This document shows positions 8,785-39,134 of a stretch of DNA of 64,000 bases, one piece after another. A program made the position numbers and the translations under genes. This DNA is from Spirochaetota bacterium (GTDB lineage Bacteria; Spirochaetota; UBA4802; UBA5550): the NCBI GenBank assembly GCA_963663865.1, contig OY760686.1, positions 2,336,001 through 2,400,000 of the forward strand. Direction: 5' to 3'. Below the pieces are notes generated by a model. The model was given only the letters and a program-made list of their open reading frames with translations, did not search any database and was not told the origin of the DNA. Position 1 is the first letter of the stretch; each line of letters begins with the position of its first letter.

Positions 8785-11091
8785 ATGAAGAGAAAATTCT
8801 CAGTATCTACTTTTCTGCTTTTAGCAGCAGTTCTGCTAAATTTAGGCTGCGGTGATGACAGCGGCCAGAGCAGTACAAAAACAAGATATGAAGCAGATCT
8901 TTCCTTAAACGCCCAAGAAGAGATAGCCCTCTTCAACGATCTGATTGACAGCTACAGAAACTGCACGGAGGAAGAGCTGTATCAGATGTACCCCGCCGCT
9001 GAATATGGGCAGAGTCCTTCGTACAGCGCCGATGATGTTCTCTACCTGACATCAAACAATGTCGGATCCGGAGTTGATGCTGAAACAGCCTTCGATATGA
9101 CTCCAGAGGTAAAATCTGCTGTTCTCAACAAAGGCTTTGCCGTGGACGGCTCTCAGCGTTTCAATAACCCGCTGTCAATCTACAGAAAGGTATTTAAAAA
9201 CGACCTCCCGGTCCTAATAACCACTGACTCCATCCTTCATGCGTGGCATAAATCCTATGACGACATGCTCAAGGAGATTGAAACCTATCTGCTGACAGAG
9301 ACTCTCGCAAACTATATCTCTGAAATCAGGTCGTCAATCCCGGAGAGCTTATCGAACAACACTGAAAAAGAGGTCTATCGTGACATAGACGTTCTCTTCT
9401 CGGTTACCTTCGCCCTTCTGGGAAAAACTGCGGAACCATACGCGGTAATGTCAGAAAATGAGGACTTTGTTAATGAATTAACAACAAAATGCCTCAAGGC
9501 TGAAGGGGCTGAAGATATTGAAATATTTGGAGAAAAAAGAAAACAGTTTGATTTCACTATGTTTAAACCAAGGGGACACTATACAGAAAGCGAAGTGCTT
9601 TCAAACTATTTCAGGGCCGTGACATGGCTCGGCCGGATGAACTTAATGGTCTTTGACTCGCCGAGGCAGTTTCGAATGGCACAGGTCCTTTCGACCATGC
9701 TTCCGGAGGAAAGCCGGAGGCTTCAGGGCATCAAAGAGATGGACAATCTTCTGGGAGCGCTTGTCGGACCCAACGACTCCATGACCCCCATGGAGATGCG
9801 TATTTTTTCAACTGATCACTCCATCGAATCAGCGCATAAGCTTGATGCTGAAGAGATTTCTTTTCTTCAGGGTTAACTCAAAAAAGAAGGCTATGGACAA
9901 CAGCTTATTATATCACAGTATCTTAATACCAACCCCTGGTCCTCTGAACCGCAGGAGTACCCTTTATCCTTCACTGTCCTCGGCCCGCGTTACACAGTTG
10001 ACTCAGAGGTCTTCTCAAACGTGGTCTATGACAGAATAATTGTCGACGGTGAAAAAATTAAGCGCGCTCTTCCGGCCGCGTTTGACGCCATGTTTGCTTT
10101 AGGGGACAATCTGGCCCTTGAGTTGCTTTCCGACGAGCTGGACAGATACAACTATTCCGGAAACCTCGCCAGCATGAGAAAGATAATTGAAACACACGAT
10201 GAAGCCTTCTGGGCAGGAAGCGTATATCACAGCGCTCTTAAAAATCTGGATAACACCAGGACTATTTCAGAAAGTGCGCCCGCTGTTTTCCAGCAGAAGC
10301 CCTGGGCAATGAAGATGCTCTCCACACGTCTCGGTTTCTGGTCACAGCTCAGGCACGACAACATGCTATATATAAAACAATCTTTTTCCGGTGGCTACGT
10401 ATGCGAATATCCGGATGGCTATGTCGAGCCGTATCCCGATTTTTACAGGGGCCTTGCTGAAATGTCGCAGAAACTGAAAACAGTTTTGGAGGGCTACCTG
10501 GCTGCTGTTGATCTTTCACATTCAGCTTCTTCATACGATTCTCCTGAAAGAGTTAAGACCCGGCTATTACAATATCTCTCCAATGTGTCTTCAGCATGCA
10601 ACACCCTTGAATCCATTTCACAGAAAGAACTCAAGGGAGAAACACTTGATTCAGACGAAACGGCTTTTATTAAAAACTGGTACAGGGAAGAATCGTTTAA
10701 CAACTGTGTTCCTTCTACATCGTATTCGGGTGAATACTTCAAAATGTATTACAGCACCTATACTGGAGAAGTTTGGATGAATTCTAATCAAGATCCATTT
10801 TTCTTTAACTTCGAACCTGAAATAGCTGACGTACACACTTGTCCTGAAAGCCCTTCCTTCCCTTTTAAGGTCCTTAGTGTAGCAACCGGAGGGGCTCTCC
10901 CCATATTCGCAGCTGTTGAAAACCCTCTGGGCGATGTTGTCCTGTACACCGGGGCTGTCTACGATTACTACGAGTTTTCTGACGGCAAGCGCTACAGCGA
11001 CGAGGAATGGGAAAGCCTTTTTGAATCGGGAACAGTCCCGGACAAGCCTTCGTGGATGAATGACTCAGAGGGAGGTTACATCACCTACTGA
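8785..11091 (+). pseudogene. DUF3160-like lipoprotein interrupted by one in-frame TAA at 9874-9876
   Basis: ORFs 8785-9876 and 10021-11091 are in the same frame. The intervening codons read LKKEGYGQQLIISQYLNTNPW... and align with the intact paralogue. Lipobox LGC; motifs ITTDSILH, FKPRGHYT, WSQLRHD, GYVEPYP, IADVHT. Confidence 0.85.
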
Positions 11092-11143
11092 GTTTAACGA
11101 TATATCTTCCGGCATTGCCGTCCCGAAAGGGGCGGCATTTTTT
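10885..11143 (+). repeat. 259-bp exact direct repeat, copy 1 (3' end of DUF3160 gene plus terminator)
   Basis: Identical to 13403-13661 by manual comparison. Confidence 0.95.
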
Positions 11144-11242: not shown

Positions 11243-13609
11243 ATGAAAACTGTAAAATTTTCTTTCCTTTTGGTTTTATTTCCAATACTATTTCTAAACG
11301 GCTGCAACAACTCTGACAAAACGGTTACCAATCCGGATCCTATGGTAAATGATACCGCGGGACAGAATGATGAAGCAGCATATAAAGATGACGAATCTGC
11401 CTATTCTGCCATGAACTCATCCTTCACTGTTACCAAAGATCAGCTCTCCGAAAACGCACAGAATGAAATCACAGGGTTTAGTGATTTTATTGACTCCTAC
11501 AGAAACCTCACAAAATCAGAGATTGACGAGATGTACCCTGTTCCAGGCTATTCCGAAGCACCGTCATACAACGAGGACGATATTTTATACTTAACATCCA
11601 ACAGTACAGCCAGCGGTGTTGACGCTGAAACAGCATTCGATATGACACCTGAAGTGAAATCAGCAATTCTGAGCAGGGGGTTTGCAGTAGATGGGGGGCA
11701 AATACATAACAACCCGCTTTCCATTTACAAGAAGGTATTCCAGAATGACCTGCCGGTTCTTGTGACCACAGATGCGGTCCTTCATGCATGGCACAAATCA
11801 TACGCCGATATGCTCGAAGATATTGACAATGGTCTTTCATACAAACTTGAAGATGGATTGAATGAATTACGTTCAGCAATACCGGATGAATTTTCCAGCG
11901 ATGAAGAATACCTTGCCTATCTCGACATTGACCTTCTTATTTCTACTGCATCAGCACTTCTTAATCCGAGCTCTGGCACCTATGCAGTTTTAAGTGAAAA
12001 TATTAATAAAATTGATTCCTTTATCAGCAAATGTACAAACGCAGAAGATACTGACGATGTTTATGCTTTCGGCCAGATTCGTAAAAATTTTGATTTCACA
12101 AACTTTAAACCAAGAGGATATTACACAAACTCAGAAAGGCTCTCAAACTACTTCAGGGCATTCACCTGGCTAAGCTCCATGGACATCAGGGTTTACGACT
12201 CTGTCAGGCAGTTCAGGATGGCACAGACACTTTCCAAAATGCTTTCTGCAAATGAAACAGCATATTCTAACATTCATGCAATTAACACTGTGTTGAACAG
12301 CCTTGTCGGCCCTGTAGATGCAATGACTCCATTTGAAATGATCACATTCTCCGAAGAGCACTCAATATCATCATCTATCGATATGTCAGATGATGATATA
12401 CTGGCACTTCAGAAAACACTTCTTACTGAAGGCTACGGCCAGCAGCAGATTATCTCTCAATACCTTGAGACAAATCCATTCAGTGACAAAACTGAAGAGT
12501 ACCCCATGAGCTTTGTTTTTCTTGGAAAGAGATACACTGTAGACTCCGAAGTCTTTTCAAATGTTGTCTATGACAGAATAATATATAACGATAAAAAGGT
12601 TGCCAGGATGCTGCCGTCTTCGTTTGACGCTATGTTCGCCCTTGGTGATAATCTTTCACTTGAGCTTCTCTCAGAAGAACTTGATACCTTTAACTATGCA
12701 GGCAACCTTGCAGCGATGAGAAAAATCATTGAGACAAAGGATGATGACTTCTGGTCAGAAAGCCAATATCACGCAACATTAAAAAATCTGGAAAAATTAA
12801 GATCAACCTCCGAAAGTGCCCCTCAGGTTTTCAGACAGAAGACATGGGCTAAGAAAATGCTGGCCGCACAGCTCGGATACTGGTCTCAACTTCGACATGA
12901 TAACATACTATATGTCAAACAATCCTCTTCAGGTGGGTATTTATGCGAGTACCCTGACGGTTATGTTGAACCATATCCTGAATTTTACACAGGAATGGCC
13001 AATTTGTGCAGTCTATTAAAAGATATTTTTGATGAGAATGAAATATCGGATCTCAATACTTCTTTCCTGGATAATTTCAGTTCATTATGCCTGACCCTTG
13101 CCTCAATATCTGAAAAAGAATTAGCCGGAGAAACATTATCGGAAACTGAAACATCATTTCTGCAAAGCTGGTTCAAAGAGGAACCTATTTCAAATTGTGT
13201 TCCCACAACCCGCTACACTGGGAAATATTTCCAAATGTATTATTCAATTCAGAAATACATGTATAGCTACAGTGCAGGAAATGATTATTATTATGATTAC
13301 ATGGGAGAAAACCCGCCATTTTTCGACCTCGAACCGGAAATAGCAGACGTTCATACATGTCCTGAAAGCAATCTGAGTCCTCTGGAAATACTCAGCGTTG
13401 CTACCGGAGGGGCTCTCCCCATATTCGCAGCTGTTGAAAACCCTCTGGGCGATGTTGTCCTGTACACCGGGGCTGTCTACGATTACTACGAGTTTTCTGA
13501 CGGCAAGCGCTACAGCGACGAGGAATGGGAAAGCCTTTTTGAATCGGGAACAGTCCCGGACAAGCCTTCGTGGATGAATGACTCAGAGGGAGGTTACATC
13601 ACCTACTGA
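11243..13609 (+). CDS. DUF3160-like lipoprotein (intact paralogue, 788 aa)
   Basis: Lipobox LNGC; VTTDAVLH, FKPRGYYT, WSQLRHD, GYVEPYP, IADVHT motifs; GAGGAG RBS. Confidence 0.85.
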   Translation: MKTVKFSFLLVLFPILFLNGCNNSDKTVTNPDPMVNDTAGQNDEAAYKDDESAYSAMNSSFTVTKDQLSENAQNEITGFSDFIDSYRNLTKSEIDEMYPVPGYSEAPSYNEDDILYLTSNSTASGVDAETAFDMTPEVKSAILSRGFAVDGGQIHNNPLSIYKKVFQNDLPVLVTTDAVLHAWHKSYADMLEDIDNGLSYKLEDGLNELRSAIPDEFSSDEEYLAYLDIDLLISTASALLNPSSGTYAVLSENINKIDSFISKCTNAEDTDDVYAFGQIRKNFDFTNFKPRGYYTNSERLSNYFRAFTWLSSMDIRVYDSVRQFRMAQTLSKMLSANETAYSNIHAINTVLNSLVGPVDAMTPFEMITFSEEHSISSSIDMSDDDILALQKTLLTEGYGQQQIISQYLETNPFSDKTEEYPMSFVFLGKRYTVDSEVFSNVVYDRIIYNDKKVARMLPSSFDAMFALGDNLSLELLSEELDTFNYAGNLAAMRKIIETKDDDFWSESQYHATLKNLEKLRSTSESAPQVFRQKTWAKKMLAAQLGYWSQLRHDNILYVKQSSSGGYLCEYPDGYVEPYPEFYTGMANLCSLLKDIFDENEISDLNTSFLDNFSSLCLTLASISEKELAGETLSETETSFLQSWFKEEPISNCVPTTRYTGKYFQMYYSIQKYMYSYSAGNDYYYDYMGENPPFFDLEPEIADVHTCPESNLSPLEILSVATGGALPIFAAVENPLGDVVLYTGAVYDYYEFSDGKRYSDEEWESLFESGTVPDKPSWMNDSEGGYITY

Positions 13610-13661
13610 GTTTAACGATATATCTTCCGGCATTGCCGTCCCGAAAGGGGCGGCATTTTTT
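13403..13661 (+). repeat. 259-bp exact direct repeat, copy 2
   Basis: Identical to 10885-11143. Confidence 0.95.
13634..13661 (+). terminator. Intrinsic terminator, abutting the stop of the convergent gene
   Basis: Same hairpin as at 11116, followed by T6. Confidence 0.85.
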
Positions 13662-26975: not shown

Positions 26976-29006
26976 TTATTTAAAAATCTTCATAAGCCAA
27001 ATATCACTACAGCTGGTAACTCCTGCAATATTAACCCCTGTCCCTCCGGCATAGAGGTTGTTCTCACTGTCGACAGCTAACGTGGTTATCAGATCATTAC
27101 CCTGTGATCCGTCTAAAATTATATTCCAGTTTTCAGTATCTTCAACACCACTGCTCGAATATTTTTTAATCCACCAGTCTTCAGTGTCAGAATCACCCAC
27201 AACAGCACCGGCCACATAGACATTGTTTTCACTGTCAATGACGATGGTATTGTCAATTTCATCACTTCTGTTGCAGTATATCTTCTTGTCCCAGTTTTCG
27301 GTGTCTTCGTTTCCGTCACTCGAGAACTTTTTGATCCACCAGTCAGACCAGTTATATATATTGGCCAGATTGATTCCAACCCCTACCGCATAAACGTTAT
27401 CATTACCGTCTATTGCCAGAGCATTCAGATGATCAATACTTCCATTGCCGTCAAAGACCTTGTTCCAGTTTTCAGTATCTTCGCTGCCTCTGCTGTCAAA
27501 CTTCTTGATCCACCAGTCATAGCTGGTTGATTCGCCTGCCAGATTCGTCCCGACCCCTCCGATATAGACATTGTCACTGCTATCAATGACAACTGAAAAT
27601 ACCAGATCATCGGAGCCGTTACCGTCAAAAACCTTGTTCCAGTTTTCAGTATCTTCATTGCCATTGCTGTCAAACTTCTTGATCCACCAGTCACAGCTGG
27701 TTGACTCGGCCTGATTATATCGGTAACCTGCTGCGTAGACATTGTTATTGCTGTCTATAGCTATTGAAGTGACGCCTTCGAGGCCGCGATTGTGATCAAA
27801 AGCCTTGTTCCAGTTTTCAGTATCTTCATTGCCAGCGCTGTCATACTTCTTTATAAACCAGTCATAGCTGGTATGCCCTTCATCCGTACTGTCTACAAGA
27901 TTGATACCATACCCAGCCACATAGAGATTATCATCGTTGTCCACAGCTATTGCATTTCCGGAATTAGAATAACATGCATCGCTAATTCTCTTGTTCCAAT
28001 TAACCGTATCCTCTGTACCATCACCAAGAATCTTCTTTACAAGCATATCACTATTATAAGCAGAATAATTCAGATCCATTTCCGACCATGCACAAGCCAT
28101 ATAGACATTGTCACTGCTGTCCAGGACGATTGAATTTATACGGTCTGTGTACCCATTGTTAAACACCCAGTTCTGACAAACTATACTAACAGGGCTGTAT
28201 TCGCTAGTGTTAGAACCGTTTACAGCCTGTATCCATATATAGTAATTTCTGTCATGTCTGATATCTGTTATGGTCGTTGATGTCCCGGTAATTCCTTCAA
28301 TATATTTCTCGTAGACAGATGAATCATCAGAAGTGTTGCATAATACGTTATAACTTTCCGCTCCCTCGACCGCTGACCAGCTCACCTCAATTGTATTATT
28401 GATGACCTTTACATCTGGTTTAACCGGATTTCCTGCCGCAATCACAGTCAATATGAAGGTCTTTGTTGCTGAACTGCTATTCATTGTAATGGTTGCTGTT
28501 AATACCAGTAAACTATTCCTTGTAAAGGGCCTGCACACACTGCCGTTATCAGTTATTATCCCCGGATTACTGCTTTCCCATGTAATTGTTGAACCGTTTG
28601 CCCCTGATTCAGGCAATACCAGATCACCTGTTATACTTTCTGAAGAATCCGACCCGTAAAAGGTTATAGCCAGGCTGTCGGCATCATCAGCTACTGTCTT
28701 CGCATCCTCGTCAACTAGTTCAAATGATGACGACCACAGCACATCAATTAATCCGTCACCATCAGTATCTATTCCGTCAGCAATACCGTCTCCGCTGCAA
28801 TCAATTCCTGCCGCATCTGAAAATCCGTCACCATCGGTATCAACATCACCTACAATTACGCCGCTCTGACCGATTATTGAAGGTTCTTCTTTTTGAGGGT
28901 TCACAACATTACTGTCATCAGATTCATCCGTTTCGTAACAGGCTGAAAGCATCGCGAATGCGGCAATCATAATCACATAAACACAATCCTTAATGGACTT
29001 TCTCAT
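26976..29006 (-). CDS. Multidomain surface lipoprotein (DxDxDG motifs, bacterial Ig-like, FN3-like, SBBP-type beta-propeller)
   Basis: Lipobox LSAC; DTDGDG motifs; LPESGANGSTITWESS Ig-like segment; VSWSAVEGAESY FN3-like segment; repeated AIDSxxNVY...DWWIKKFDSxGxEDTENWNK. Confidence 0.8.
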   Translation of the reverse strand: MRKSIKDCVYVIMIAAFAMLSACYETDESDDSNVVNPQKEEPSIIGQSGVIVGDVDTDGDGFSDAAGIDCSGDGIADGIDTDGDGLIDVLWSSSFELVDEDAKTVADDADSLAITFYGSDSSESITGDLVLPESGANGSTITWESSNPGIITDNGSVCRPFTRNSLLVLTATITMNSSSATKTFILTVIAAGNPVKPDVKVINNTIEVSWSAVEGAESYNVLCNTSDDSSVYEKYIEGITGTSTTITDIRHDRNYYIWIQAVNGSNTSEYSPVSIVCQNWVFNNGYTDRINSIVLDSSDNVYMACAWSEMDLNYSAYNSDMLVKKILGDGTEDTVNWNKRISDACYSNSGNAIAVDNDDNLYVAGYGINLVDSTDEGHTSYDWFIKKYDSAGNEDTENWNKAFDHNRGLEGVTSIAIDSNNNVYAAGYRYNQAESTSCDWWIKKFDSNGNEDTENWNKVFDGNGSDDLVFSVVIDSSDNVYIGGVGTNLAGESTSYDWWIKKFDSRGSEDTENWNKVFDGNGSIDHLNALAIDGNDNVYAVGVGINLANIYNWSDWWIKKFSSDGNEDTENWDKKIYCNRSDEIDNTIVIDSENNVYVAGAVVGDSDTEDWWIKKYSSSGVEDTENWNIILDGSQGNDLITTLAVDSENNLYAGGTGVNIAGVTSCSDIWLMKIFK
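27100..28030 (-). repeat. Intragenic repeats of about 55-58 aa (DW(W/F)IKK..S.G.EDTENW)
   Basis: About six protein repeats; recurrent DNA CCAGTTTTCAGTATCTTC near 27126, 27466, 27640 and 27809. Confidence 0.85.
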
Positions 29007-29221
29007 GAATTCTCCTCATTTCAAATTTGTAATATTATGCAATTATATAATATAATATATTTCATACTGTCAACACTTTTATACAACTTCTACCGAATTG
29101 CTTTGTCTCGATAAAATCAGGGTAAAACACAGGGAGAGCGATACTGTTTAGCACTACAACACTTCAATGCTCTTGTTGATAAAAATGGGGCTGTCCTGAA
29201 ACAAGGGTAGCCCTTTTTCGG

Positions 29222-29264
29222 TGCACAAAAAAAGCCGGGTCAAAACCCGGCTTTTCTCATTACA
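29222..29264 (-). terminator. 43-bp boundary repeat R1 (terminator hairpin of LRR gene copy 1)
   Basis: TGCAC-A7-GCCGGGTC-AAAA-CCCGGCTTTTCTCATTACA. Confidence 0.85.
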
Positions 29265-29275
29265 AATTTACTTTT

Positions 29276-30298
29276 TTACCACAAACAGTCGCCATACTCA
29301 ACCGTAACACCTCTGGCTTCCAGTTCGGGAATATACGTGTTGATGGTTGCATCACTGGATGGAGTCTGCATCAGATATACAGTATCTCCCTCGCCAATAC
29401 CTGTATTCTGAAGCAGCGGTGAGATGTCTGCGACAGGATTGCTTGAAAGACCAATTACCTGTAACTCAACAAGCCCAATCAAAAAAGACAAATCGTCAAT
29501 ATAGTTACCCTTATATGAATCTCCGCAAGAAGGTGTATATGATCCATCATAATAATAAAGCGGGACCCCGGCATTAAACTCTTGAAGAGCCGTTAAGCTG
29601 GAAACGAATTCGAAATACCCGGTTGCCAGATAATTCATACCAATGTCAAGACCCTTCAACTTCTTGAGTCCTGAGAGAGGTTGAAACTGTTCAGGTGTAA
29701 GGTTAAAAGGACGTTCGGGCAAATCATCCAAATCGTCAAAAATTATAGTTATGGAGGTTGATGTACTGCCAAGCCCGTTCCTGCTTACATCAAGATACTC
29801 AAGATCGGCCAGATTTGCCAGAAGACCTATTTTACCCCATTCATCACCACCCAGATACAACGAATTATTTATCGAAAGACGCTTTAGCTGAGTCATTGAT
29901 GATATTAGTTCAAGCGAATTAAGTCTTGTTCTCTCTATTTTAAGCTCTGAAACATTGGACAATTCACCCAGAACAGAAAAATCGGTTACATTCAGGCAGT
30001 TAATTATACTCAAAGAATTAAGTTCTGAAAACTTTCTCAAATCAGAGAGATCGCTTACCTCTGAATCTTCAAGAACAAATCCCCTTATACCTGTGATATC
30101 TGATTCGTAGATATCGCCTGTACTCCTGCCGATAAGTTCTCTTACAGCATCTTCAATACAGCTGTCTGCAAAAAATACTGCACTCTGCTCCTGAACCTCT
30201 GGAGTGACCGTCGACTCTTCAGGCGTTGAACTGTCGTCGCATCCCGGGAAAATCACCATTAAACTAACAAAAGCAAGAAAAGATATTGAGTTTTTCAT
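29276..30298 (-). CDS. Leucine-rich-repeat (internalin-like) lipoprotein, copy 1
   Basis: ATG 30298 after AGGAGG; FPGC lipobox; FADSCIEDAVRELIG cap; LxxLxxLxxLxL repeats. Confidence 0.88.
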   Translation of the reverse strand: MKNSISFLAFVSLMVIFPGCDDSSTPEESTVTPEVQEQSAVFFADSCIEDAVRELIGRSTGDIYESDITGIRGFVLEDSEVSDLSDLRKFSELNSLSIINCLNVTDFSVLGELSNVSELKIERTRLNSLELISSMTQLKRLSINNSLYLGGDEWGKIGLLANLADLEYLDVSRNGLGSTSTSITIIFDDLDDLPERPFNLTPEQFQPLSGLKKLKGLDIGMNYLATGYFEFVSSLTALQEFNAGVPLYYYDGSYTPSCGDSYKGNYIDDLSFLIGLVELQVIGLSSNPVADISPLLQNTGIGEGDTVYLMQTPSSDATINTYIPELEARGVTVEYGDCLW

Positions 30299-30318
30299 TT
30301 TAGCCCTCCTGAGAATAA

Positions 30319-32034
30319 TCAATGCCCATATCCTGTTGTATTAAAACCAAGGCTGTTCCATATTTCAACGGCTGTCTGCCCATACCAGAGATATATATTA
30401 TCGCCCGGGAATAACTCATTCGCAAGCTCATATGTTCCCAAAACCCAGAGCTGAGCCGCCTCAGGGTATGTGATGGTTGAAGTCATATAGTTTCTCATTA
30501 GTCCGATTGCAAGAGTGCTGGTAAAATCAAGTCCAAGGCTTTGAGTCAACAGATAGAATGCATGGCTTTGAACACAGGAGTTTCTATGAACAAACACTTT
30601 ATTATTATTTCCATAATACCAATTAGTCCCGCAATATACAGATGGAGCTCCAAGCGAATTTGGATTTCTAAAGTCACGAATAGCTACCCTATCAAGAATA
30701 AAATCCTCCCCGCCGTACCAATCAGCAGTTCCTGCCTGTTTATCAGGGTATAATTCTGTCCCGTCTTGCTGGAAATAAAATTCAACTATTGTCCCATAAA
30801 TATCACAAAATGACTCATTTAGGGCACCTGATTCACCCGTTTAGAGAAGACCGCTTGAATATTTGATCATCGCATGGGAAAATTCGTGAGCAATAACATC
30901 CAGAACCGTCAAAGCAGTACAACCCTCCCCATTACCATCACCAATAATAAAAATATCTCTGTTCCCATAAAAACGGGCTTTATCATCCTCGAAATAATAT
31001 TCATCAACTTGAACCGTACCGTCGTAAATGTAAAATTTAGAAACTCCGTCCAGTGGTCCTGAAAAAGGAACATCAGCTACTGAAGTTGTATAATATATAA
31101 CTCTATCAATGTTATATGCTGCTGAAATTGCTGCCGGGTAGTAATTGCCAAAGGAGGTTGATGAATTAGAAAAAATATATGTCCCGCTTTCTAAAGATGA
31201 AGTTAAACAATGAATTTCCCAAAATCTTGTTGGACTTAACAAATAATACAGTCCATCATAAAAGCTATATGCTCCTGTAAAAGAAACGGTGCCTCCGCCC
31301 TCTCCGCTTAATCTTGTACCGCTGAGAGTAACAGGATAACCGCTTGAATAGATATTACTGATTTTCCCGATTATATCACCTGAATTAGCATCAATATAAT
31401 AATCAAAAGACTGGTATCCTTTTCCAATCTCATTATAGCTTGCAGTAATACGGTACGCCCTTTTCTCAGCGTAAATAACGTCTTCATATTCATCCTTCAA
31501 GTTGACTGGACTATTAGCGTCCAATAGTTCAATCAAAATAGCTTTAGCATTCTCTACAGATAATTTACACTCGAATGACTGCTCATCAGGCTCAAAGTTT
31601 TTCCCGTTTATCATAAACACATTGCCATCTCTGTCGATGTGTTCAATTAACTCAGCTCCGACTATCCTGCAGCCCTTAAAGTATTGCTGAAAACGATTGT
31701 GGGTTTTTCCAAACTTGTCTGTTTCAGAACGAACTTTTATAAGTTCGACGTCAGAAGAAATGCTGCATTTTTTAAGCATGTTGATACTTAGCTTCGCAGC
31801 AGGTGAAGCATTTCGAGTGAGAGAGGATGTTTCGTTATTATACTTAAAACCAGTTGTCTTAATAACAGTCTTTAACCCTGAATTCACATCAATGATGGCA
31901 TAATTTTCTTCAGTTTGAGAACCACAGCCGTAAAGAAAAACGAGTAGAATAAATAATAAACCTATTAAAGTTGCCCGACTTCGCCATGAAGTAGCATTAA
32001 CTCCGAATATAAAAAAAGTCTTCATAAACTTCAA
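30319..32034 (-). pseudogene. Thermolysin-like M4 metalloprotease lipoprotein with one in-frame TAA (30841-30843), copy 1
   Basis: LYGC lipobox; FTP/PepSY-like propeptide; DVIAHEFSH. After the TAA the frame continues TGESGALNESFCD...DWYGGED...RDFRNP...VHRNS..SHAFYLL to 30319 with no further stop. Confidence 0.9.
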
Positions 32035-32450
32035 ATTCCCCCCAAAAAATATACTTCATAATCCTGACGATCGATCAAATGTCACAAAATCAGATTGAGA
32101 GTGATAAAGCTTGTAAATACCAATACCTATGGCCGATTAATAAACCTTAGCTGAAATCTCTCACGGCTAATCGTATCAAGATTGCGTATATAGTTGACAG
32201 TCCTAAGGTTGCAAGTAAAACATAAAAGGAGTGAGCGGTCGCCCCAGCCTATCCGCTGGTGCTTTTTTATGGGAGTGTTTCTCGTTTTTCAAGAATAAAG
32301 TTTTGAATATATCGGATGCATTATTTTAGAAATTGATTATTGCAGAGTATAAAATTCTTTTATATCTTCTTAAATGATCAGCTGCTTTTAGTTGCTTGAA
32401 TTTACGTATGGCATGCACCGGCAAATATTGCTTTATAAAGATAATATTGC

Positions 32451-32493
32451 TGCACAAAAAAGCCGGGTCAAAAACCCGGCTTTTCTCATTACA
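32451..32493 (-). terminator. 43-bp boundary repeat R2
   Basis: TGCAC-A6-GCCGGGTC-AAAAA-CCCGGCTTTTCTCATTACA. Confidence 0.85.
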
Positions 32494-32504
32494 ATTTTAC
32501 TTGT

Positions 32505-33527
32505 TTACCACAAACAGTCGCCATACTCAACCGTAACACCTCTGGCTTCCAGTTCGGGAATATACGTGTTGATGGTTGCATCACTGGATGGAGTCTGCAT
32601 CAGATATACAGTATCTCCCTCGCCAATACCTGTATTCTGAAGCAGCGGTGAGATGTCTGCGACAGGATTGCTTGACAAATCAATCTTTTGCAGTTCTGAA
32701 AGAGTACTCAAGAAAGAAACATCATCAATGTAATTACCCTTATATGAATCTCCACATGGAGCGGTATATGATTCATACCAATAATATTCCGGAATGCACG
32801 CATTAAAGTTTTGAAGGGCTGTTAAACCAGAAACGAATTCGAAATACCCGGTTGCCAGATAATTCATACCAATGTCAAGACCCTTCAACTTCTTGAGTCC
32901 TGAGAGAGGTTGAAACTGTTCAGGTGTAAGGTTAAAAGGACGTTCGGGCAAATCATCCAAATCGTCAAAAATTATAGTTATGGAGGTTGATGTACTGCCA
33001 AGCCCGTTCCTGCTTACATCAAGATACTCAAGATCGGCCAGATTTGCCAGAAGACCTATTTTACCCCATTCATCACCACCCAGATACAACGAATTATTTA
33101 TTGAAAGACGCTTTAGCTGAGTCATTGATGATATTAGTTCAAGCGAATTAAGTCTTGTTCTCTCTATTTTAAGCTCTGAAACATTGGACAATTCACCCAG
33201 AACAGAAAAATCGGTTACATTCAGGCAGTTAATTATACTCAAAGAATTAAGTTCTGAAAACTTTCTCAAATCAGAGAGATCGCTTACCTCTGAATCTTCA
33301 AGAACAAATCCCCTTATACCTGTGATATCTGATTCGTAGATATCGCCTGTACTCCTGCCGATAAGTTCTCTTACAGCATCTTCAATACAGCTGTCTGCAA
33401 AAAATACTGCACTCTGCTCCTGAACCTCTGGAGTGACCGTCGACTCTTCAGGCGTTGAACTGTCGTCGCATCCCGGGAAAATCACCATTAAACTAACAAA
33501 AGCAAGAAAAGATATTGAGTTTTTCAT
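32505..33527 (-). CDS. Leucine-rich-repeat lipoprotein, copy 2 (variant loop)
   Basis: Protein identical to copy 1 except the segment encoded by 32676-32829. Confidence 0.88.
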   Translation of the reverse strand: MKNSISFLAFVSLMVIFPGCDDSSTPEESTVTPEVQEQSAVFFADSCIEDAVRELIGRSTGDIYESDITGIRGFVLEDSEVSDLSDLRKFSELNSLSIINCLNVTDFSVLGELSNVSELKIERTRLNSLELISSMTQLKRLSINNSLYLGGDEWGKIGLLANLADLEYLDVSRNGLGSTSTSITIIFDDLDDLPERPFNLTPEQFQPLSGLKKLKGLDIGMNYLATGYFEFVSGLTALQNFNACIPEYYWYESYTAPCGDSYKGNYIDDVSFLSTLSELQKIDLSSNPVADISPLLQNTGIGEGDTVYLMQTPSSDATINTYIPELEARGVTVEYGDCLW

Positions 33528-33547
33528 TTTAGCCCTCCTGAGAATAA

Positions 33548-35263
33548 TCAATGCCCATATCCTGTTGTATTAAAACCAAGGCTGTTCCATATTTCAACGG
33601 CTGTCTGCCCATACCAGAGATATATATTATCGCCCGGGAATAACTCATTCGCAAGCTCATATGTTCCCAAAACCCAGAGCTGAGCCGCCTCAGGGTATGT
33701 GATGGTTGAAGTCATATAGTTTCTCATTAGTCCGATTGCAAGAGTGCTGGTAAAATCAAGTCCAAGGCTTTGAGTCAACAGATAGAATGCATGGCTTTGA
33801 ACACAGGAGTTTCTATGAACAAACACTTTATTATTATTTCCATAATACCAATTAGTCCCGCAATATACAGATGGAGCTCCAAGCGAATTTGGATTTCTAA
33901 AGTCACGAATAGCTACCCTATCAAGAATAAAATCCTCCCCGCCGTACCAATCAGCAGTTCCTGCCTGTTTATCAGGGTATAATTCTGTCCCGTCTTGCTG
34001 GAAATAAAATTCAACTATTGTCCCATAAATATCACAAAATGACTCATTTAGGGCACCTGATTCACCCGTTTAGAGAAGACCGCTTGAATATTTGATCATC
34101 GCATGGGAAAATTCGTGAGCAATAACATCCAGAACCGTCAAAGCAGTACAACCCTCCCCATTACCATCACCAATAATAAAAATATCTCTGTTCCCATAAA
34201 AACGGGCTTTATCATCCTCGAAATAATATTCATCAACTTGAACCGTACCGTCGTAAATGTAAAATTTAGAAACTCCGTCCAGTGGTCCTGAAAAAGGAAC
34301 ATCAGCTACTGAAGTTGTATAATATATAACTCTATCAATGTTATATGCTGCTGAAATTGCTGCCGGGTAGTAATTGCCAAAGGAGGTTGATGAATTAGAA
34401 AAAATATATGTCCCGCTTTCTAAAGATGAAGTTAAACAATGAATTTCCCAAAATCTTGTTGGACTTAACAAATAATACAGTCCATCATAAAAGCTATATG
34501 CTCCTGTAAAAGAAACGGTGCCTCCGCCCTCTCCGCTTAATCTTGTACCGCTGAGAGTAACAGGATAACCGCTTGAATAGATATTACTGATTTTCCCGAT
34601 TATATCACCTGAATTAGCATCAATATAATAATCAAAAGACTGGTATCCTTTTCCAATCTCATTATAGCTTGCAGTAATACGGTACGCCCTTTTCTCAGCG
34701 TAAATAACGTCTTCATATTCATCCTTCAAGTTGACTGGACTATTAGCGTCCAATAGTTCAATCAAAATAGCTTTAGCATTCTCTACAGATAATTTACACT
34801 CGAATGACTGCTCATCAGGCTCAAAGTTTTTCCCGTTTATCATAAACACATTGCCATCTCTGTCGATGTGTTCAATTAACTCAGCTCCGACTATCCTGCA
34901 GCCCTTAAAGTATTGCTGAAAACGATTGTGGGTTTTTCCAAACTTGTCTGTTTCAGAACGAACTTTTATAAGTTCGACGTCAGAAGAAATGCTGCATTTT
35001 TTAAGCATGTTGATACTTAGCTTCGCAGCAGGTGAAGCATTTCGAGTGAGAGAGGATGTTTCGTTATTATACTTAAAACCAGTTGTCTTAATAACAGTCT
35101 TTAACCCTGAATTCACATCAATGATGGCATAATTTTCTTCAGTTTGAGAACCACAGCCGTAAAGAAAAACGAGTAGAATAAATAATAAACCTATTAAAGT
35201 TGCCCGACTTCGCCATGAAGTAGCATTAACTCCGAATATAAAAAAAGTCTTCATAAACTTCAA
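33548..35263 (-). pseudogene. M4 metalloprotease lipoprotein with one in-frame TAA (34070-34072), copy 2
   Basis: Same sequence as copy 1, including the stop. Confidence 0.9.
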
Positions 35264-35679
35264 ATTCCCCCCAAAAAATATACTTCATAATCCTGACGAT
35301 CGATCAAATGTCACAAAATCAGATTGAGAGTGATAAAGCTTGTAAATACCAATACCTATGGCCGATTAATAAACCTTAGCTGAAATCTCTCACGGCTAAT
35401 CGTATCAAGATTGCGTATATAGTTGACAGTCCTAAGGTTGCAAGTAAAACATAAAAGGAGTGAGCGGTCGCCCCAGCCTATCCGCTGGTGCTTTTTTATG
35501 GGAGTGTTTCTCGTTTTTCAAGAATAAAGTTTTGAATATATCGGATGCATTATTTTAGAAATTGATTATTGCAGAGTATAAAATTCTTTTATATCTTCTT
35601 AAATGATCAGCTGCTTTTAGTTGCTTGAATTTACGTATGGCATGCACCGGCAAATATTGCTTTATAAAGATAATATTGC

Positions 35680-35722
35680 TGCACAAAAAAGCCGGGTCAA
35701 AAACCCGGCTTTTCTCATTACA
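35680..35722 (-). repeat. 43-bp boundary repeat R3
   Basis: Identical to R2 but followed by unrelated sequence. Confidence 0.9.
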
Positions 35723-36049: not shown

Positions 36050-37000
36050 AATCCCGGCAGGCCGCCGGAAATTGAGCTTCTTTCTTCGGCTGTAAATATT
36101 TCTGAACATTAGATCACAGTGTCTGTATTTGTCTATTATTTTTCTTTGTTGCATTGTTGTTGTGCATGTGGACTGCTATTCTTTTTACGCTGGGAGCGCG
36201 GCACTGGGTTTAATCGGGACGGTCTCGACCGTCCCCTACCACTGTTTTCTGTGCAGAGCGAACGGGCATTTTTGCCAGGGAGCCTGCCGTCTATTTCACA
36301 CTGAGAGTGTGAGACCTTTTTCGTTACTTTCTTTTTTCGATCCAAAAAAGAAAGTAACCAAAGAAAAAGGGATATCCTGCGCGGAGGGCGATGGGACATC
36401 CATGTCCAAAGAATTAGTCACTCAGAAATATTATATTGAGAGATTGCTTTTTTTAGTCAGGCTCCTTCGGAGCCGGAAAGCGCAGCGTCCTGCTGCGCTT
36501 GAGTAAGTAATCCTATGATTACACAAAGTAACTGATTCTTTAATTCCGCCATTATGTTTGCCGACGGCTATTTCGACCTCCTGTCGGCCGTCGGCACTGT
36601 GACATCGTGTCAGGCGCGCAGACTCATCACAGTCGGCCGCGGAAAAAGGCGCTGCGTTTGTTTGAGTCTGCGAGGCAGACGAGTTACGCAGCGACCCGCG
36701 GATGACAAGATGAGGAGGGAAGCCGAAGGCCGGAACATTGGCGGCAGATTTCTTTTGACCACTTTTCTTTATAAAAGAAAAGTGGTGAGAAAATTGACGA
36801 CAAGCCCCGCGTGTAAATGTGAGTACGCTCCGTACAAAGGAAAGCATTGATGTTGCGAAAAGAAACGCTTCGCAGAGGAGTCTTTTGACTCCTTTTCTTA
36901 TAAAAGAAAAGGAGTGAGAAAGGTGACCTCGCGCCTCGCGCGTGAAATGAGGTGCGCTCCGCACAAGCAGAGGTATCCAGGCAATGGGCATAAAAATGAT
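36050..37000. repeat. Non-coding cluster of REP/MITE-like palindromes
   Basis: GTAG-type REP on the minus strand at 36216-36239; A/T-tract hairpins at 36323-36358, 36758-36786 and 36888-36915; imperfect direct repeat of about 85 bp starting at 36751 and 36881. Confidence 0.7.
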
Positions 37001-37109: not shown

Positions 37110-39134
37110 ATGTTAACTTTACTGACCGTATTGAGCCTGGGAATCGCCGGTGTTGTGGCCTGGGCGCTAACCGGCAACGATAAAAACAAAGAATCTGCTC
37201 CTCAGCAGCCTGCTGAAGCCGAGCCGGAAAAGCTGTACCGTAAAAGAGCCACCGACAGGGAGATTGAGGAATCTTTTCCGGACGAACAGCCTGCTCACAG
37301 GAGAAAGAGCGACCAGCACGCGTCCCCTTTCATCCGCCCGGATGGCAGCTTCCGTCTTCCCTACTACGCCGACGATATTATTCCTTCAACTTCACAGCTG
37401 AGGGTTTACAGGCGGACACTTTTAAACTGCGAGGTTTACGCTGAAAAGGGCGATTTTACGACAGCCATCTCACTCTACGAGGGAGTGAAGGCGCGTACCA
37501 GAAACAGCGATATCCGCCGAAAAATTGACGCCGATATAGAGTATCTAAAAAACTTCAGAATCGAAAAAGAAGAAGAGATTCGGAAACAGAAGAGCCATGG
37601 ACACCTGCCCTTCTCCGATGACAGAAAGGAGATAAAGTTCACCCTTGACATTCCCCCGACGATCAACATAGGTGTTCCTGAAGATTCAGCCGCGAAATCG
37701 GAGAAGCTTGCGGCTGAAATAGCCGAAAGGATACGCAAGGAGATTTCTGAATCACAAAAACAGGAGATTGACTCCCTGAAAACCGTCATCTCTGGTCTGC
37801 GGGAAGAAAACGCAAGGAAGATTGACGAGCTGAGAGATCAGCTCAGCGGCATGCCTGAATCATCATCCGATGAAGACAAAGCCATTGAGGAGTTTGAACA
37901 GCTCAGAACTCAGCTCTCTGAACTTTCTGAACGCCTTGAACAGAGCCTTCCCGCCGAAAAATTTGACGAAGAAGAGATTATGGTGCCCTCTCTCACAGAA
38001 GTCAAAGACAGCAGACCAGCGTTAAAGCTGGACGAGTCTGAAGATAACTTCCTGGATGACGATAATGAATCTGCCCTCTTTCCAGAGGATATCAGTGACG
38101 AATCAGATGATGCATACCGCTCCGAGGATTATTCCGCTGAAGAAGGGTCGCCCTCAGAACATGAGACAGAGACTTCAGACACCGGCCTGCTTGAAGAAGC
38201 CTCTTCAATAGAAGAGGAGTTCATTCTTTCGCCAGAGGAAAAAGAAGAGGCTGCCGGAACAGCTCCTGAATCAGCGCCCGAATCAGTATTAACCGAAGAC
38301 ACAGAAAATGAAGCATCCGGAATAGATGAGACGCTTGAGTATAATGAGCCTGAAGAAGACATAGCCCCTCTTAAGGCCGATATCCCCCCCTCAGATAACA
38401 GCGGCGAACCAGAAAAACCCGAACTTATAAAGGACCTGGTTCACCCCGAAGAAAATGACACTTTAACTGATGAAGAAATCTTTGAAAAGATTATTGAGGA
38501 TGATGCTTCAGAAAGCAGCACAGCCGATTTGCCTGAAAGCGGAAAAGAAGAATACAACGATACCGCACCCGACGGCCCCCCTCCCGGCACAGAGAGTTCT
38601 GAAGAAGACGACGAATTTGAACTCCTGAAAAACATCATAAAACCGGAAGAGAATGACACCCTCAGCGACGAAGAGATATTTGAAAAGATTATCCATGATG
38701 AGCCCGCGGGCGAAACAGAGAACAACTTTGAAATTCTTGGCGACCGCCGAAACGATGAGAGCGAGTTCGACGTATTCGACAAAGAGGCTGAACGCAAAAG
38801 GCGCGAGGAGGAATCGTTCTACAAAAATCTTCTGACCGCAGAGAAGCGGTACAAGCGAGAGCTGCCTATTCTCAAAGTCAGCTATGACTTTAAAAAACTT
38901 CCCAGGGAGATGAGCCTCTCGCGCGAGAAGAACCTGATAGAGTACTCATTCTACAAGTACCGCCCAATGCTTGAGAAGGCGCAGGAGTACATTGACAAGA
39001 GACAGGTAAGAAACGCTCTAAACTATTACAAAGTTGTTATGGGGCAGAATATACCCCCTGAATTCAAGGCCATGATTAAGAGAAACATAAACGACCTCAC
39101 AGAATACCTTGAGAAGTATTTGACAGGCGACTGA
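37110..39134 (+). CDS. Membrane-anchored hypothetical protein with coiled coil, long acidic disordered region and helical C-terminal domain
   Basis: N-terminal TM; E/D-rich middle; duplicated PEENDTL(T/S)DEEIFEKII motif. Confidence 0.8.
   Translation: MLTLLTVLSLGIAGVVAWALTGNDKNKESAPQQPAEAEPEKLYRKRATDREIEESFPDEQPAHRRKSDQHASPFIRPDGSFRLPYYADDIIPSTSQLRVYRRTLLNCEVYAEKGDFTTAISLYEGVKARTRNSDIRRKIDADIEYLKNFRIEKEEEIRKQKSHGHLPFSDDRKEIKFTLDIPPTINIGVPEDSAAKSEKLAAEIAERIRKEISESQKQEIDSLKTVISGLREENARKIDELRDQLSGMPESSSDEDKAIEEFEQLRTQLSELSERLEQSLPAEKFDEEEIMVPSLTEVKDSRPALKLDESEDNFLDDDNESALFPEDISDESDDAYRSEDYSAEEGSPSEHETETSDTGLLEEASSIEEEFILSPEEKEEAAGTAPESAPESVLTEDTENEASGIDETLEYNEPEEDIAPLKADIPPSDNSGEPEKPELIKDLVHPEENDTLTDEEIFEKIIEDDASESSTADLPESGKEEYNDTAPDGPPPGTESSEEDDEFELLKNIIKPEENDTLSDEEIFEKIIHDEPAGETENNFEILGDRRNDESEFDVFDKEAERKRREEESFYKNLLTAEKRYKRELPILKVSYDFKKLPREMSLSREKNLIEYSFYKYRPMLEKAQEYIDKRQVRNALNYYKVVMGQNIPPEFKAMIKRNINDLTEYLEKYLTGD

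Follow-up and report, generated by a model that had tools for sequence, protein, structure and literature searches.

How can two tandem genes that are otherwise almost identical differ so strongly within one short internal patch? The question is raised by a pair of LRR lipoprotein genes in a 64,000-nucleotide stretch of a Spirochaetota genome (G000; contig OY760686.1, positions 2,336,001 to 2,400,000 of the forward strand), hereafter the window, whose coordinates are used below unless they are preceded by G000.

Anatomy of the tandem repeat

A tandem repeat was confirmed: shifted by 3229 bp, the window matches itself between 29222 and about 32493. Both genes of a unit, one for an M4 peptidase and one for an LRR lipoprotein, lie on the minus strand. 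The features are as follows; P0002 and P0003 are the LRR paralogues of a related genome, discussed below.

29222..32450, repeat unit 1 (3229 bp, self-match at offset 3229): hairpin t1, LRR copy 1, M4 pseudogene copy 1 and its upstream region
32451..35679, repeat unit 2 (3229 bp): overall identity to unit 1 of 98.4%
29222..29264, minus strand, terminator-like hairpin t1: downstream of LRR copy 1, differing from t2 and t3 at 29233-29241
32451..32493, minus strand, terminator-like hairpin t2: downstream of LRR copy 2, marking the junction of units 1 and 2
35680..35722, partial third copy, consisting of hairpin t3 (43 bp): identical to t2; the right flank begins beyond it
29276..30298, minus strand, LRR lipoprotein gene copy 1: 340 aa from the ATG at 30298 (the mechanical ORF starts at a TTG at 30322)
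32505..33527, minus strand, LRR lipoprotein gene copy 2: 340 aa
29447..29600, minus strand, patch form 1: codons 241-292, close to P0002 (48 of 52 residues)
32676..32829, minus strand, patch form 2: codons 241-292, of a third type, matching P0002 at 36 and P0003 at 33 of 52 residues
30319..32034, minus strand, M4 (thermolysin-family) peptidase gene copy 1: in-frame TAA at 30841-30843
33548..35263, minus strand, M4 peptidase gene copy 2: identical sequence, same TAA at 34070-34072

Residue numbers of the LRR proteins, including those of the patch, follow the mechanical ORFs of 348 aa (29276-30322 and 32505-33551, minus strand); the public protein collection carries the 340-aa form.

Mismatches between the copies form three groups: eight in the hairpin and 3' flank (29233, 29234, 29236, 29239-29241, 29266 and 29274), 47 within 29447-29600 and a single one at 29873. 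No mismatch occurs in the 2577 bp from 29874 to 32450. Thus 154 of the roughly 3180 bp from 29275 to 32450 account for 47 of 48 mismatches (binomial tail 7e-61), with mismatch-free stretches of 172 and 272 bp on either side, in full agreement with a preliminary description of this DNA, which had called the copies near-identical outside the patch. No difference lies outside the first 652 bp from the left end of the unit (29233-29873); at the level of the hairpins, t2 equals t3 and t1 differs. The locus is a mosaic, in which near-identical and old blocks meet at sharp borders within adjacent direct repeats.

On the minus strand, the hairpins fold at -23.6 kcal/mol (t1, z -5.3), -22.6 kcal/mol (t2, z -4.8) and -24.5 kcal/mol (t3, z -5.0). 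A consensus terminator scan does not list the 43-bp hairpin; t1 is called terminator-like from its strong fold and a T-run read by eye. When the unit was compared with the whole genome by blastn, it returned the two units and one 43-bp third piece, and nothing else.

Support for two real copies

Both patch forms and both flank joins occur in contigs of public sequencing runs. Their word depths, which reflect copy number only roughly, agree with two genuine copies: in run X2 the values are 16.7-17.2 for the shared parts, 8.5 for form 1 (214-nt contig, 29417-29630), 8.9 for form 2 (214-nt contig, 32646-32850), and 11.8 and 9.8 for the flanks. A 70-nt contig of the same run (32464-32533, depth 8.7) connects t2 with the 3' terminus of the second LRR gene; another, of 2893 nt, starts at 29601, crosses the M4 upstream region and enters the hairpin (32493), beyond which the path splits, one arm leading to that same 3' terminus and the other into the right flank. 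The strain behind runs X2 and X6 may be that of the assembly, so that they are not fully independent of it.

The preliminary description had allowed for an artefact, in which two haplotypes of a single-copy locus were set out as a tandem repeat. The perfect identity of the units outside the patch would suit this idea, as would position 29873, a C in copy 1 of the assembly where the contigs of X2 and X6 show T only. Against it stand the depths of the patch forms and of the t2-to-LRR2 contig, roughly half that of the shared parts, the branching of the 2893-nt contig after the hairpin, and the genome itself, a single closed contig. We consider the artefact hardly credible.

An old patch in young surroundings

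Translation of the DNA at residues 241-292 reproduces exactly the patch peptides quoted in the preliminary description. Of the 30 codons that differ between the two forms, 14 do so synonymously, as the many silent changes reported there had implied, and 16 replace the residue; 10 types of substitution occur. The second cysteine of copy 2 is present as described: Cys252 occurs in that copy only, and Cys266 is common to both. Nei-Gojobori estimates for the patch give a pS of 0.64 (dS about 1.47) and a pN of 0.205 (dN about 0.24), with dN/dS of about 0.16. In the remainder of the LRR gene there is one synonymous difference between the copies, and none at all in 29874-32450; the patch is therefore old and the rest young. 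The earlier suggestion that old paralogue or allele sequence was set beside very young sequence by recombination is upheld by this contrast.

The LRR lipoprotein and its aromatic loop

Both LRR lipoproteins match Pfam LRR_4 (39.2 and 42 bits, cut-off 27), and copy 1 also matches LRR_EndoS (29.8 bits, cut-off 27.9). The AlphaFold2 model of copy 2 (mean pLDDT 80.3, pTM 0.80) retrieved internalin-type LRR domains with Foldseek (E 2e-12 to 1e-8, TM up to 0.57); together, these results point to a predicted solenoid fold of internalin-like type. The N-terminus holds a putative lipoprotein-type signal, MKNSISFLAFVSLMVIFPGC, ending in '...VIFPGC' with the lipobox cysteine, as read by eye. Listeria internalins (InlF 4fmz, InlA, InlB, InlH) share the LRR solenoid, by Foldseek, and Pfam LRR_4 matches over the cut-off. 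They differ in sequence (14-24% identity to the protein studied here) and in their LPXTG or GW anchor, which contrasts with the apparent lipoprotein signal; the protein studied here also has the insertion described next.

A Tyr/Trp-rich loop inserted in the LRR stack, noted in the preliminary description, was recovered in alignment A2 as a 19-residue aromatic insertion between a beta-strand and the N-x-I-x-D motif of one repeat, present in all four close family members and in none of 13 more distant LRR homologues. The patch spans one whole irregular LRR, including this clade-specific insertion. Half of the 16 replacements (8) lie in the aromatic loop and three at concave-face positions, with the repeat register read by eye. 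Model confidence is low in the loop (10-residue block means of 71 and 53).

Both neighbouring M4 genes are broken

In each unit the intact LRR gene stands beside an interrupted M4 gene, a point that the preliminary description had missed. The TAA codon follows HEFSH...SSGLL, at a site where at least 90% of relatives have tyrosine, Tyr395 in the intact 568-aa P0025 of the related genome; contigs of X2 and X6 cover the site, with no alternative letter listed. The ORF ends after 397 aa when called mechanically and after 394 aa in the gene call of the collection, ahead of the invariant Glu404 and His480 (alignment A3), and Pfam FTP, Peptidase_M4 and Peptidase_M4_C are matched only when the TAA is read through. 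An active M4 peptidase needs HEXXH, the downstream glutamate zinc ligand and the C-terminal helical domain in a single polypeptide; here they are not joined in one, and P0025 is intact.

The preliminary description had raised the possibility that the loop contacts the M4 protease. This idea is weakened in the present genome, since both M4 copies carry the nonsense codon. Complex prediction with the relative's proteins, P0025 residues 226-568 (A3) and P0002 residues 36-337 (A4), scored 0.23 and 0.00 against a mark of 0.32, values that speak in neither direction on binding. In a look for fused M4-LRR proteins, no LRR family figured among the 25 most frequent Pfam families (of 48) in 31 long M4 relatives. 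The TAA shared by both copies, where the relative has tyrosine, implies that the unit was duplicated or homogenised after the nonsense mutation, and provides a dated marker of how recent the homogenisation is.

A less homogenised locus in a related genome

The relative has one intact M4 gene, whose product P0025 is 97% identical to the N-terminal M4 piece of G000, and two LRR paralogues, P0002 and P0003, encoded on the same 1,388,793-bp contig. These two are nearly identical at their ends (98% of residues in common over 9-68, 91% over 293-348) and diverged between them: 63% over residues 69-185, 15% over 186-201, 59% over 202-240 and 62% over 241-292. Over residues 9-68 the LRR copies of each genome are 88-90% identical to those of the other, against 98% for P0002 and P0003. 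Eight sites oppose copies 1 and 2, sharing one residue, to P0002 and P0003, sharing another, and six of them lie in residues 9-68; N-terminal sites common to paralogues within a genome and different between genomes are a signature of concerted evolution. The relative thus keeps a less homogenised state of the pair, and the stretch 29273-29395 is common to both of its LRR paralogues.

Among the informative sites of the patch, four pair form 1 with P0002 and form 2 with P0003, and one supports grouping by genome. Form 2 is a third type and not a clear orthologue of P0003, the link resting on these four strict sites.

In run X8, two 772-nt contigs (depths 40.5 and 44.5) lie between shared ends at 82.6 and 75.2, the M4 contig stands at 43.3, and one contig joins 30324 directly to 32454. 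These depths and the joint indicate one M4 gene and two adjacent LRR genes, a gene order for the relative that relies on one short contig joint (27 letters on its shorter side) and on the supposition that X8 contains the relative. Among nine differences listed for X8 within the patch, seven occupy sites that distinguish forms 1 and 2, four of them with the form-2 letter; third-codon-position bias can explain this, and X8 departs from the window at 79 further places across the stretch.

More distant genomes offered little for comparison. A pattern search of genome contigs with P0003 gave 46 pattern matches, of which none was confirmed; in 40 other genomes of the family or order the best matches were 29-34% identical, with no close locus, and in two of them (loci L002 and L003) the LRR genes have no adjoining M4 gene.

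No donor cassettes or further variants were found

Cassette-based antigenic variation is known in spirochaetes: Borrelia vlsE draws on the vls silent cassettes, and Treponema pallidum tprK on donor sites. The preliminary description had likened the patch to these systems and to lamprey VLR inserts, as gene conversion diversifying a binding surface, and had proposed to look for donors. Neither blastn with the unit nor tblastn with the proteins revealed a third copy or a donor cassette in the closed 3,156,400-bp genome. Low-stringency tblastn of the same genome with 72-residue patch peptides returned the two copies and a distant LRR gene (G000:624408-625541, 24-26% identity), and no more. Further patch variants were absent from a collection of 5.8 billion proteins, and one exact-pattern scan of metagenome contigs, with the constant flank beside the patch (three degenerate positions), gave 0 matches. 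Short protein fragments searched with residues 200-340 of copy 2 yielded one 55-aa fragment of the C-terminal cap that stops short of the patch. At the patch borders of either copy there are no direct or inverted repeats, and matches of 12-20 nt elsewhere look like chance.

Just two forms occur in the contigs of X2, and the depth of each is close to half that of the shared parts. Contigs drop rare variants; with this proviso, nothing indicates that switching is going on. The form-2 contig of run X6 includes 26 letters that were not placed on the window.

Programmed segmental variation, by silent cassettes of the vls/tprK kind or by a diversity-generating retroelement, is therefore close to refuted, and we rate it very improbable. 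Sharp borders, and forms of equal length, would be expected of it, and the genome does encode one reverse transcriptase (RVT_1, G000:1038521-1039162). This gene, however, lies 1.3 Mb away, neither the patch nor its flanks recur in the closed genome, no repeats flank the patch, X2 has two forms at about 1x each, and the 14 purely synonymous codons among 30, with all substitution types, do not match adenine-directed changes. The likeness to vlsE and tprK extends to a surface lipoprotein gene, a short internal segment differing on constant flanks and a recombinational origin, but both forms here are full expressed-type tandem genes with neither donor array nor flanking repeats. Similarly, the locus resembles diversity-generating retroelements in that a surface-protein gene varies over a short segment (about 150 bp) close to its 3' end, and departs from them in having no template repeat and many third-position changes that are silent and not adenine-specific. 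The cassette-fed diversification first proposed is not sustained, given also the low dN/dS of the patch. The outcome that the preliminary description had itself named as adverse, a one-off recombinant without other variants or donors, largely holds across the genome, the protein collection, the one metagenome scan and the X2 contigs.

Origin of the patch

We now propose that the patch is probably a remnant of old paralogue sequence, left after tandem LRR genes had recombined with and converted one another, and that a very recent duplication of the unit with its TAA-bearing M4 gene followed. The proposal builds on direct observations: the anatomy of the repeat, the contrast in age, the absence of a donor and the relative's paralogue pair with homogenised N-terminal ends. 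The starting locus would have held tandem LRR lipoprotein paralogues downstream of an M4 peptidase gene. The LRR copies would have recombined repeatedly, by unequal crossing-over and interlocus gene conversion, and the M4 gene would have gained its nonsense codon, the order of events being our reconstruction. A very recent RecA-type duplication of the hairpin-LRR-M4 segment, bounded by the 43-bp hairpins, would then, with recombination between LRR copies, have made the units identical from 29601 to the unit end, except at 29873. The patch and the slightly different hairpin t1 would be remnants of older divergence between two LRR paralogues, and the 172 bp between patch and hairpin region would have been homogenised earlier. 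The patch would mark where homogenisation stopped, with no dedicated mechanism writing in a cassette.

Differences restricted to the left end, together with the identity of t2 and t3, fit an end-point, of a crossover or of conversion, within the LRR gene and a fresh duplication of everything rightward. At least two recombination events are needed to pass from M4-LRR-LRR to M4-LRR-M4-LRR with this mosaic; no single event was found to suffice. The direction of change is probably the reverse of that first proposed: recombination made all else identical, and the patch is the leftover. Most likely, the 154-base patch is an ordinary by-product of recombination between neighbouring copies, with no programmed variation system, and we infer that no selection is needed to explain it.

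A different history would start from an identical fresh duplicate that later received short tracts, the patch and separately the hairpin region, from the diverged allele of another strain or from a lost third paralogue. Form 2 is about equally distant from both paralogues of the relative and has no donor in the genome, as such an import would predict, and the 26 unplaced letters of X6 may indicate further variants in the population. The import nevertheless requires two separate events with 172 identical bases between them, leaves unexplained why all differences sit at one end of the unit, and has no source allele in the protein collection or in the one metagenome scan; we find it unlikely. Selection could also have acted, conversion homogenising the LRR scaffold while copies with an identical aromatic-loop repeat were selected against, so that two binding specificities were kept. 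The coincidence of the patch with one whole irregular LRR and its insertion, the replacements in the loop and at concave-face positions, the integrity of both LRR genes beside broken M4 genes and a low loop confidence compatible with an exposed flexible loop all accord with this. But dN/dS in the patch is 0.16, the relative's patch region (62%) is no more diverged than the rest of its central region (59-63%), with no special hypervariable island, and only four sequences exist; selection of this kind strikes us as distinctly improbable. We count three loop types among the four genes of the two genomes. A broader version, which we hold to be quite unlikely, would make the aromatic-loop LRR a specificity module that escapes homogenisation because two loop forms are advantageous, and that recombination between strains or paralogues shuffles on a constant scaffold. 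Such shuffling, if true, would amount to a slow analogue of cassette variation at the level of the population, with no need of a donor array; if the loop were a ligand-specificity module, the pair would offer a small model for binding variants kept apart under concerted evolution.

Relation to other tandem paralogues

Survival of an old block amid recombination between copies, the origin that we favour, has parallels elsewhere. Concerted evolution and mosaic divergence among tandem paralogues, driven by interlocus gene conversion and unequal crossing-over, are reported for mammalian gene pairs (PMC2720389), bacterial release-factor genes (PMC4530459) and a mycobacterial PE_PGRS pair (PMC1762029), and have been modelled for tandem HMA4 copies (10.1101/2025.10.29.685298). 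The present locus resembles such systems in its direct tandem repeats, in N-terminal ends that are closer between paralogues within a genome than between orthologues, in identity blocks adjoining old divergence at sharp borders, and in the lack of dedicated machinery. It differs in that homogenisation is extreme, with 2577 bp free of differences across a whole neighbouring pseudogene, and in that the surviving block is one single LRR.

On this account the locus would be a clear case, taken from nature, of mosaic divergence between tandem paralogues of a bacterium, with an LRR pair that stays intact while its protease neighbour decays. It also calls for caution: a sharp divergent patch in otherwise identical tandem genes resembles programmed diversification, and here duplication and gene conversion probably explain it.

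Further support for this origin comes from a second tandem pair elsewhere in the window, in which the pattern is reversed: the paralogues share 64% identity as proteins, yet contain 271 nt that are 99% identical.

Organization of the tandem units

The host genome (G000) is closed (3,156,400 bp, 45.9% G+C), with the window at C1:2336001-2400000, and the locus consists of two complete units arranged head to tail, followed by a third, partial piece:

29222-32450: tandem unit 1, 3229 bp
32451-35679: tandem unit 2, 3229 bp
35680-35722: third, partial piece of the unit, 43 bp

Each unit holds on its minus strand an M4 (thermolysin-family) peptidase gene with matches to FTP, PepSY, Peptidase_M4 and Peptidase_M4_C, a leucine-rich repeat (LRR) protein gene, and a hairpin. 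The LRR gene lies about 20 bases downstream of the M4 gene and is preceded by GGAGG; its 340-aa product reaches 39-42 bits with Pfam LRR_4 (cut-off 27) and has a signal that reads by eye as lipoprotein-like. The hairpins t1 (29222-29264), t2 (32451-32493) and t3 (35680-35722) are strong and followed by a T-run, with a fold energy of -22.6 to -24.5 kcal/mol (z around -5). In the whole genome this hairpin occurs only these three times, always at the LRR/M4 locus.

One and the same in-frame TAA interrupts the two M4 copies (30841-30843 and 34070-34072, minus strand). In a relative, the orthologue P0025 is intact (568 aa) with Tyr395 at this site, and tyrosine is present there in at least 90% of 29 aligned relatives. 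As the stop precedes the third zinc ligand, leaving the invariant Glu404 and His480 past it, both M4 copies are pseudogenes with one common lesion. The LRR genes downstream of them are still open.

An old patch in young surroundings

Between the two units there are 8 mismatches in or just past the hairpin (29233-29274), 47 within the stretch 29447-29600 and one more at 29873; the stretches 29275-29446, 29601-29872 and 29874-32450 (2577 bp) are without mismatch. The 154-bp patch that the preliminary description singled out between otherwise identical copies is thus borne out, its mismatches being clustered far above chance (7e-61). The patch peptides had also been read correctly, including the second cysteine of copy 2 (Cys252).

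The patch spans codons 241-292, of which 30 differ, 14 of them synonymously. With a pS of 0.64, a pN of 0.205 and a dN/dS of about 0.16, the patch sequence is old and under purifying selection, and its surroundings are extremely young. This contrast in age supports the earlier proposal of a recombinational origin from old paralogous sequence. The sole difference outside the patch and the hairpin region, at 29873, is a C in copy 1 and a T in copy 2; contigs of the public sequencing runs X2 and X6 have only T at this position, and the C may be an assembly error or a variant confined to the clone that was assembled.

Both copies are recovered from sequencing runs

Contigs from four runs were compared over 28900-32850; their word depth is a rough guide only, and the branching pattern agrees with the depths. 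In X2, the left-flank contig has a depth of 11.8 and the contig entering the right flank 9.8, next to 17.2 and 16.7 for the segments common to both units. Form 1 (29447-29600) and form 2 (32676-32829) of the patch appear as separate 214-nt contigs with depths of 8.5 and 8.9, and a 70-nt contig (depth 8.7) is specific to hairpin t2 and the 3' end of LRR copy 2. Finally, a 2893-nt contig starts at 29601, covers the M4 gene together with the region upstream of it and branches once it has entered the hairpin. Such a picture is expected of two real tandem copies.

Both patch forms also occur in run X6, which belongs to another study, and X11 carries a piece of form 2; X2, X6 and X11 may come from the same strain as the assembly, and so not be fully independent of it. 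In X6, form 1 is roughly twice as deep as form 2, whose contig (154 nt, depth 8.47; window 32646-32773) aligns over letters 27-154, leaving 26 letters that do not fit the window. The unfitted letters and the depth imbalance may stem from an additional variant of the patch or from the presence of a second strain in the sample.

The patch within the LRR fold

The AlphaFold2 model of copy 2, built from an alignment of 17 sequences, is an LRR solenoid (pLDDT 80.3, pTM 0.80), the nearest solved folds being Listeria internalins. In the model the patch occupies residues 233-284: it begins where the helix of one repeat ends, takes in an irregular repeat in full and reaches the beta-strand that follows. 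It contains a Tyr/Trp-rich insertion of 19 residues, present only in four close family members and absent from 13 more distant homologues. Model confidence is low in the insertion loop (means of 71 and 53 over blocks of 10 residues). Half of the replacements in the patch (8 of 16) fall in this loop, and three more are at concave-face positions according to our own reading of the repeat register. A role in ligand binding would be plausible.

A paralogue pair in a relative

Among 5.8 billion protein clusters there are four close members of the family: copy 1, copy 2, P0002 (92%) and P0003 (70%), the last two being paralogues encoded on one 1,388,793-bp contig of the relative. P0002 resembles both copies throughout (97% in residues 69-185), and in the patch region it is like form 1 (48 of 52 residues). 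Form 2 is a third patch type, with 36 of 52 residues in common with P0002 and 33 of 52 in common with P0003; it groups with P0003 at four informative sites, against one for a genome-wise grouping.

P0003 and P0002 have diverged across all of the central region, being 63%, 15%, 59% and 62% identical in residues 69-185, 186-201, 202-240 and 241-292, and are 98% and 91% identical at their ends (residues 9-68 and 293-348). Six N-terminal sites are common to the two paralogues of each genome and different between genomes, a pattern of concerted evolution.

In run X8 the locus is present in diverged form, with the net three-codon deletion that P0002 also has. Two contigs of 772 nt, at about 1x, lie there between common ends at about 2x, the M4 contig is at single depth, and one contig connects 30324 directly to 32454. 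From these contigs, the relative would have a single M4 gene and then two LRR genes side by side. Loose ends in X8 at 29187, 29218 and 32484 indicate flanking sequence unlike that of the present genome on both sides of the locus; the context of the locus may be different, or its surroundings variable.

Candidate mechanisms and proposed origin

The preliminary description likened the patch to vls, tprK or VLR-type diversification. Searches of the genome by blastn with the unit and by tblastn with the proteins and the 72-residue patch peptides gave no third copy of the unit or patch, the sole other match being a distant LRR gene at 24-26% identity, and no repeats were found at the patch borders; lacking donor and bordering repeats, such a system is not supported. 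A short-fragment protein search yielded a single hit, 55 aa of the C-terminal cap, and a single exact-pattern scan of the metagenome collection gave no further patch variants. On the boldest reading, selection maintains the difference between the copies in the loop-bearing repeat, which would act as a specificity module, the loop taking half of the replacements; we think this improbable. Divergence between P0002 and P0003 in the patch region does not exceed that in the remainder of the central region, and the patch is therefore no special island of hypervariability. A retroelement origin was also considered and rejected: the substitution pattern does not match, and the sole reverse-transcriptase gene is 1.3 Mb away. 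The latter (G000:C1:1038521-1039162, minus strand) is the genome's single RVT_1 match, within a 485-aa open frame (E 1.4e-37).

As the most likely origin we propose instead a very recent duplication that had the 43-bp hairpins as its limits and took in the hairpin-LRR-M4 segment, plus recombination of the LRR copies with each other, with an end-point near 29600/29601. This would account for the common nonsense codon, the 2577 bp without difference, the identity of t2 with t3 as against t1, and the confinement of all differences to the left 652 bp of the unit. Left of the end-point, the patch and hairpin t1 would retain old differences of two resident paralogues, the exception being a 172-bp tail that would have been homogenised earlier; in the relative, a shorter stretch (29273-29395) is likewise common to both paralogues. 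No single event could be devised for this layout. Two RecA-type events would suffice, for example, in this presumed order, unequal crossing-over between hairpins and then deletion between adjacent LRR copies. With this locus, the well-known mosaic divergence of tandem paralogues gains a further example.

Other repeats in the window

A second tandem pair is formed by two ORFs:

10021-11091 (+): 356-aa ORF
11243-13609 (+): 788-aa lipoprotein-like protein

The former is 64% identical to the C-terminal 348 residues of the latter. At their 3' ends, a 271-nt block (10873-11143 and 13391-13661) is 99% identical, a mirror image of the LRR patch. The block looks like a recent conversion tract, through which interlocus conversion would be visibly at work in this genome.

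Further repeats lie on either side of the LRR/M4 locus. A gene at 26976-29006 (minus strand) has a lipoprotein-like product of 676 aa that matches aBig_2, fn3 and SBBP beta-propeller; its DNA includes five internal repeats, each about 93 nt long, at a spacing of 165-174 nt (27103-27879). Two short, diverged direct repeats are found at 36764-36966 (74 nt, 73% identity) and 38421-38701 (83 nt, 71% identity), the second of them inside a 674-aa ORF (37110-39134).
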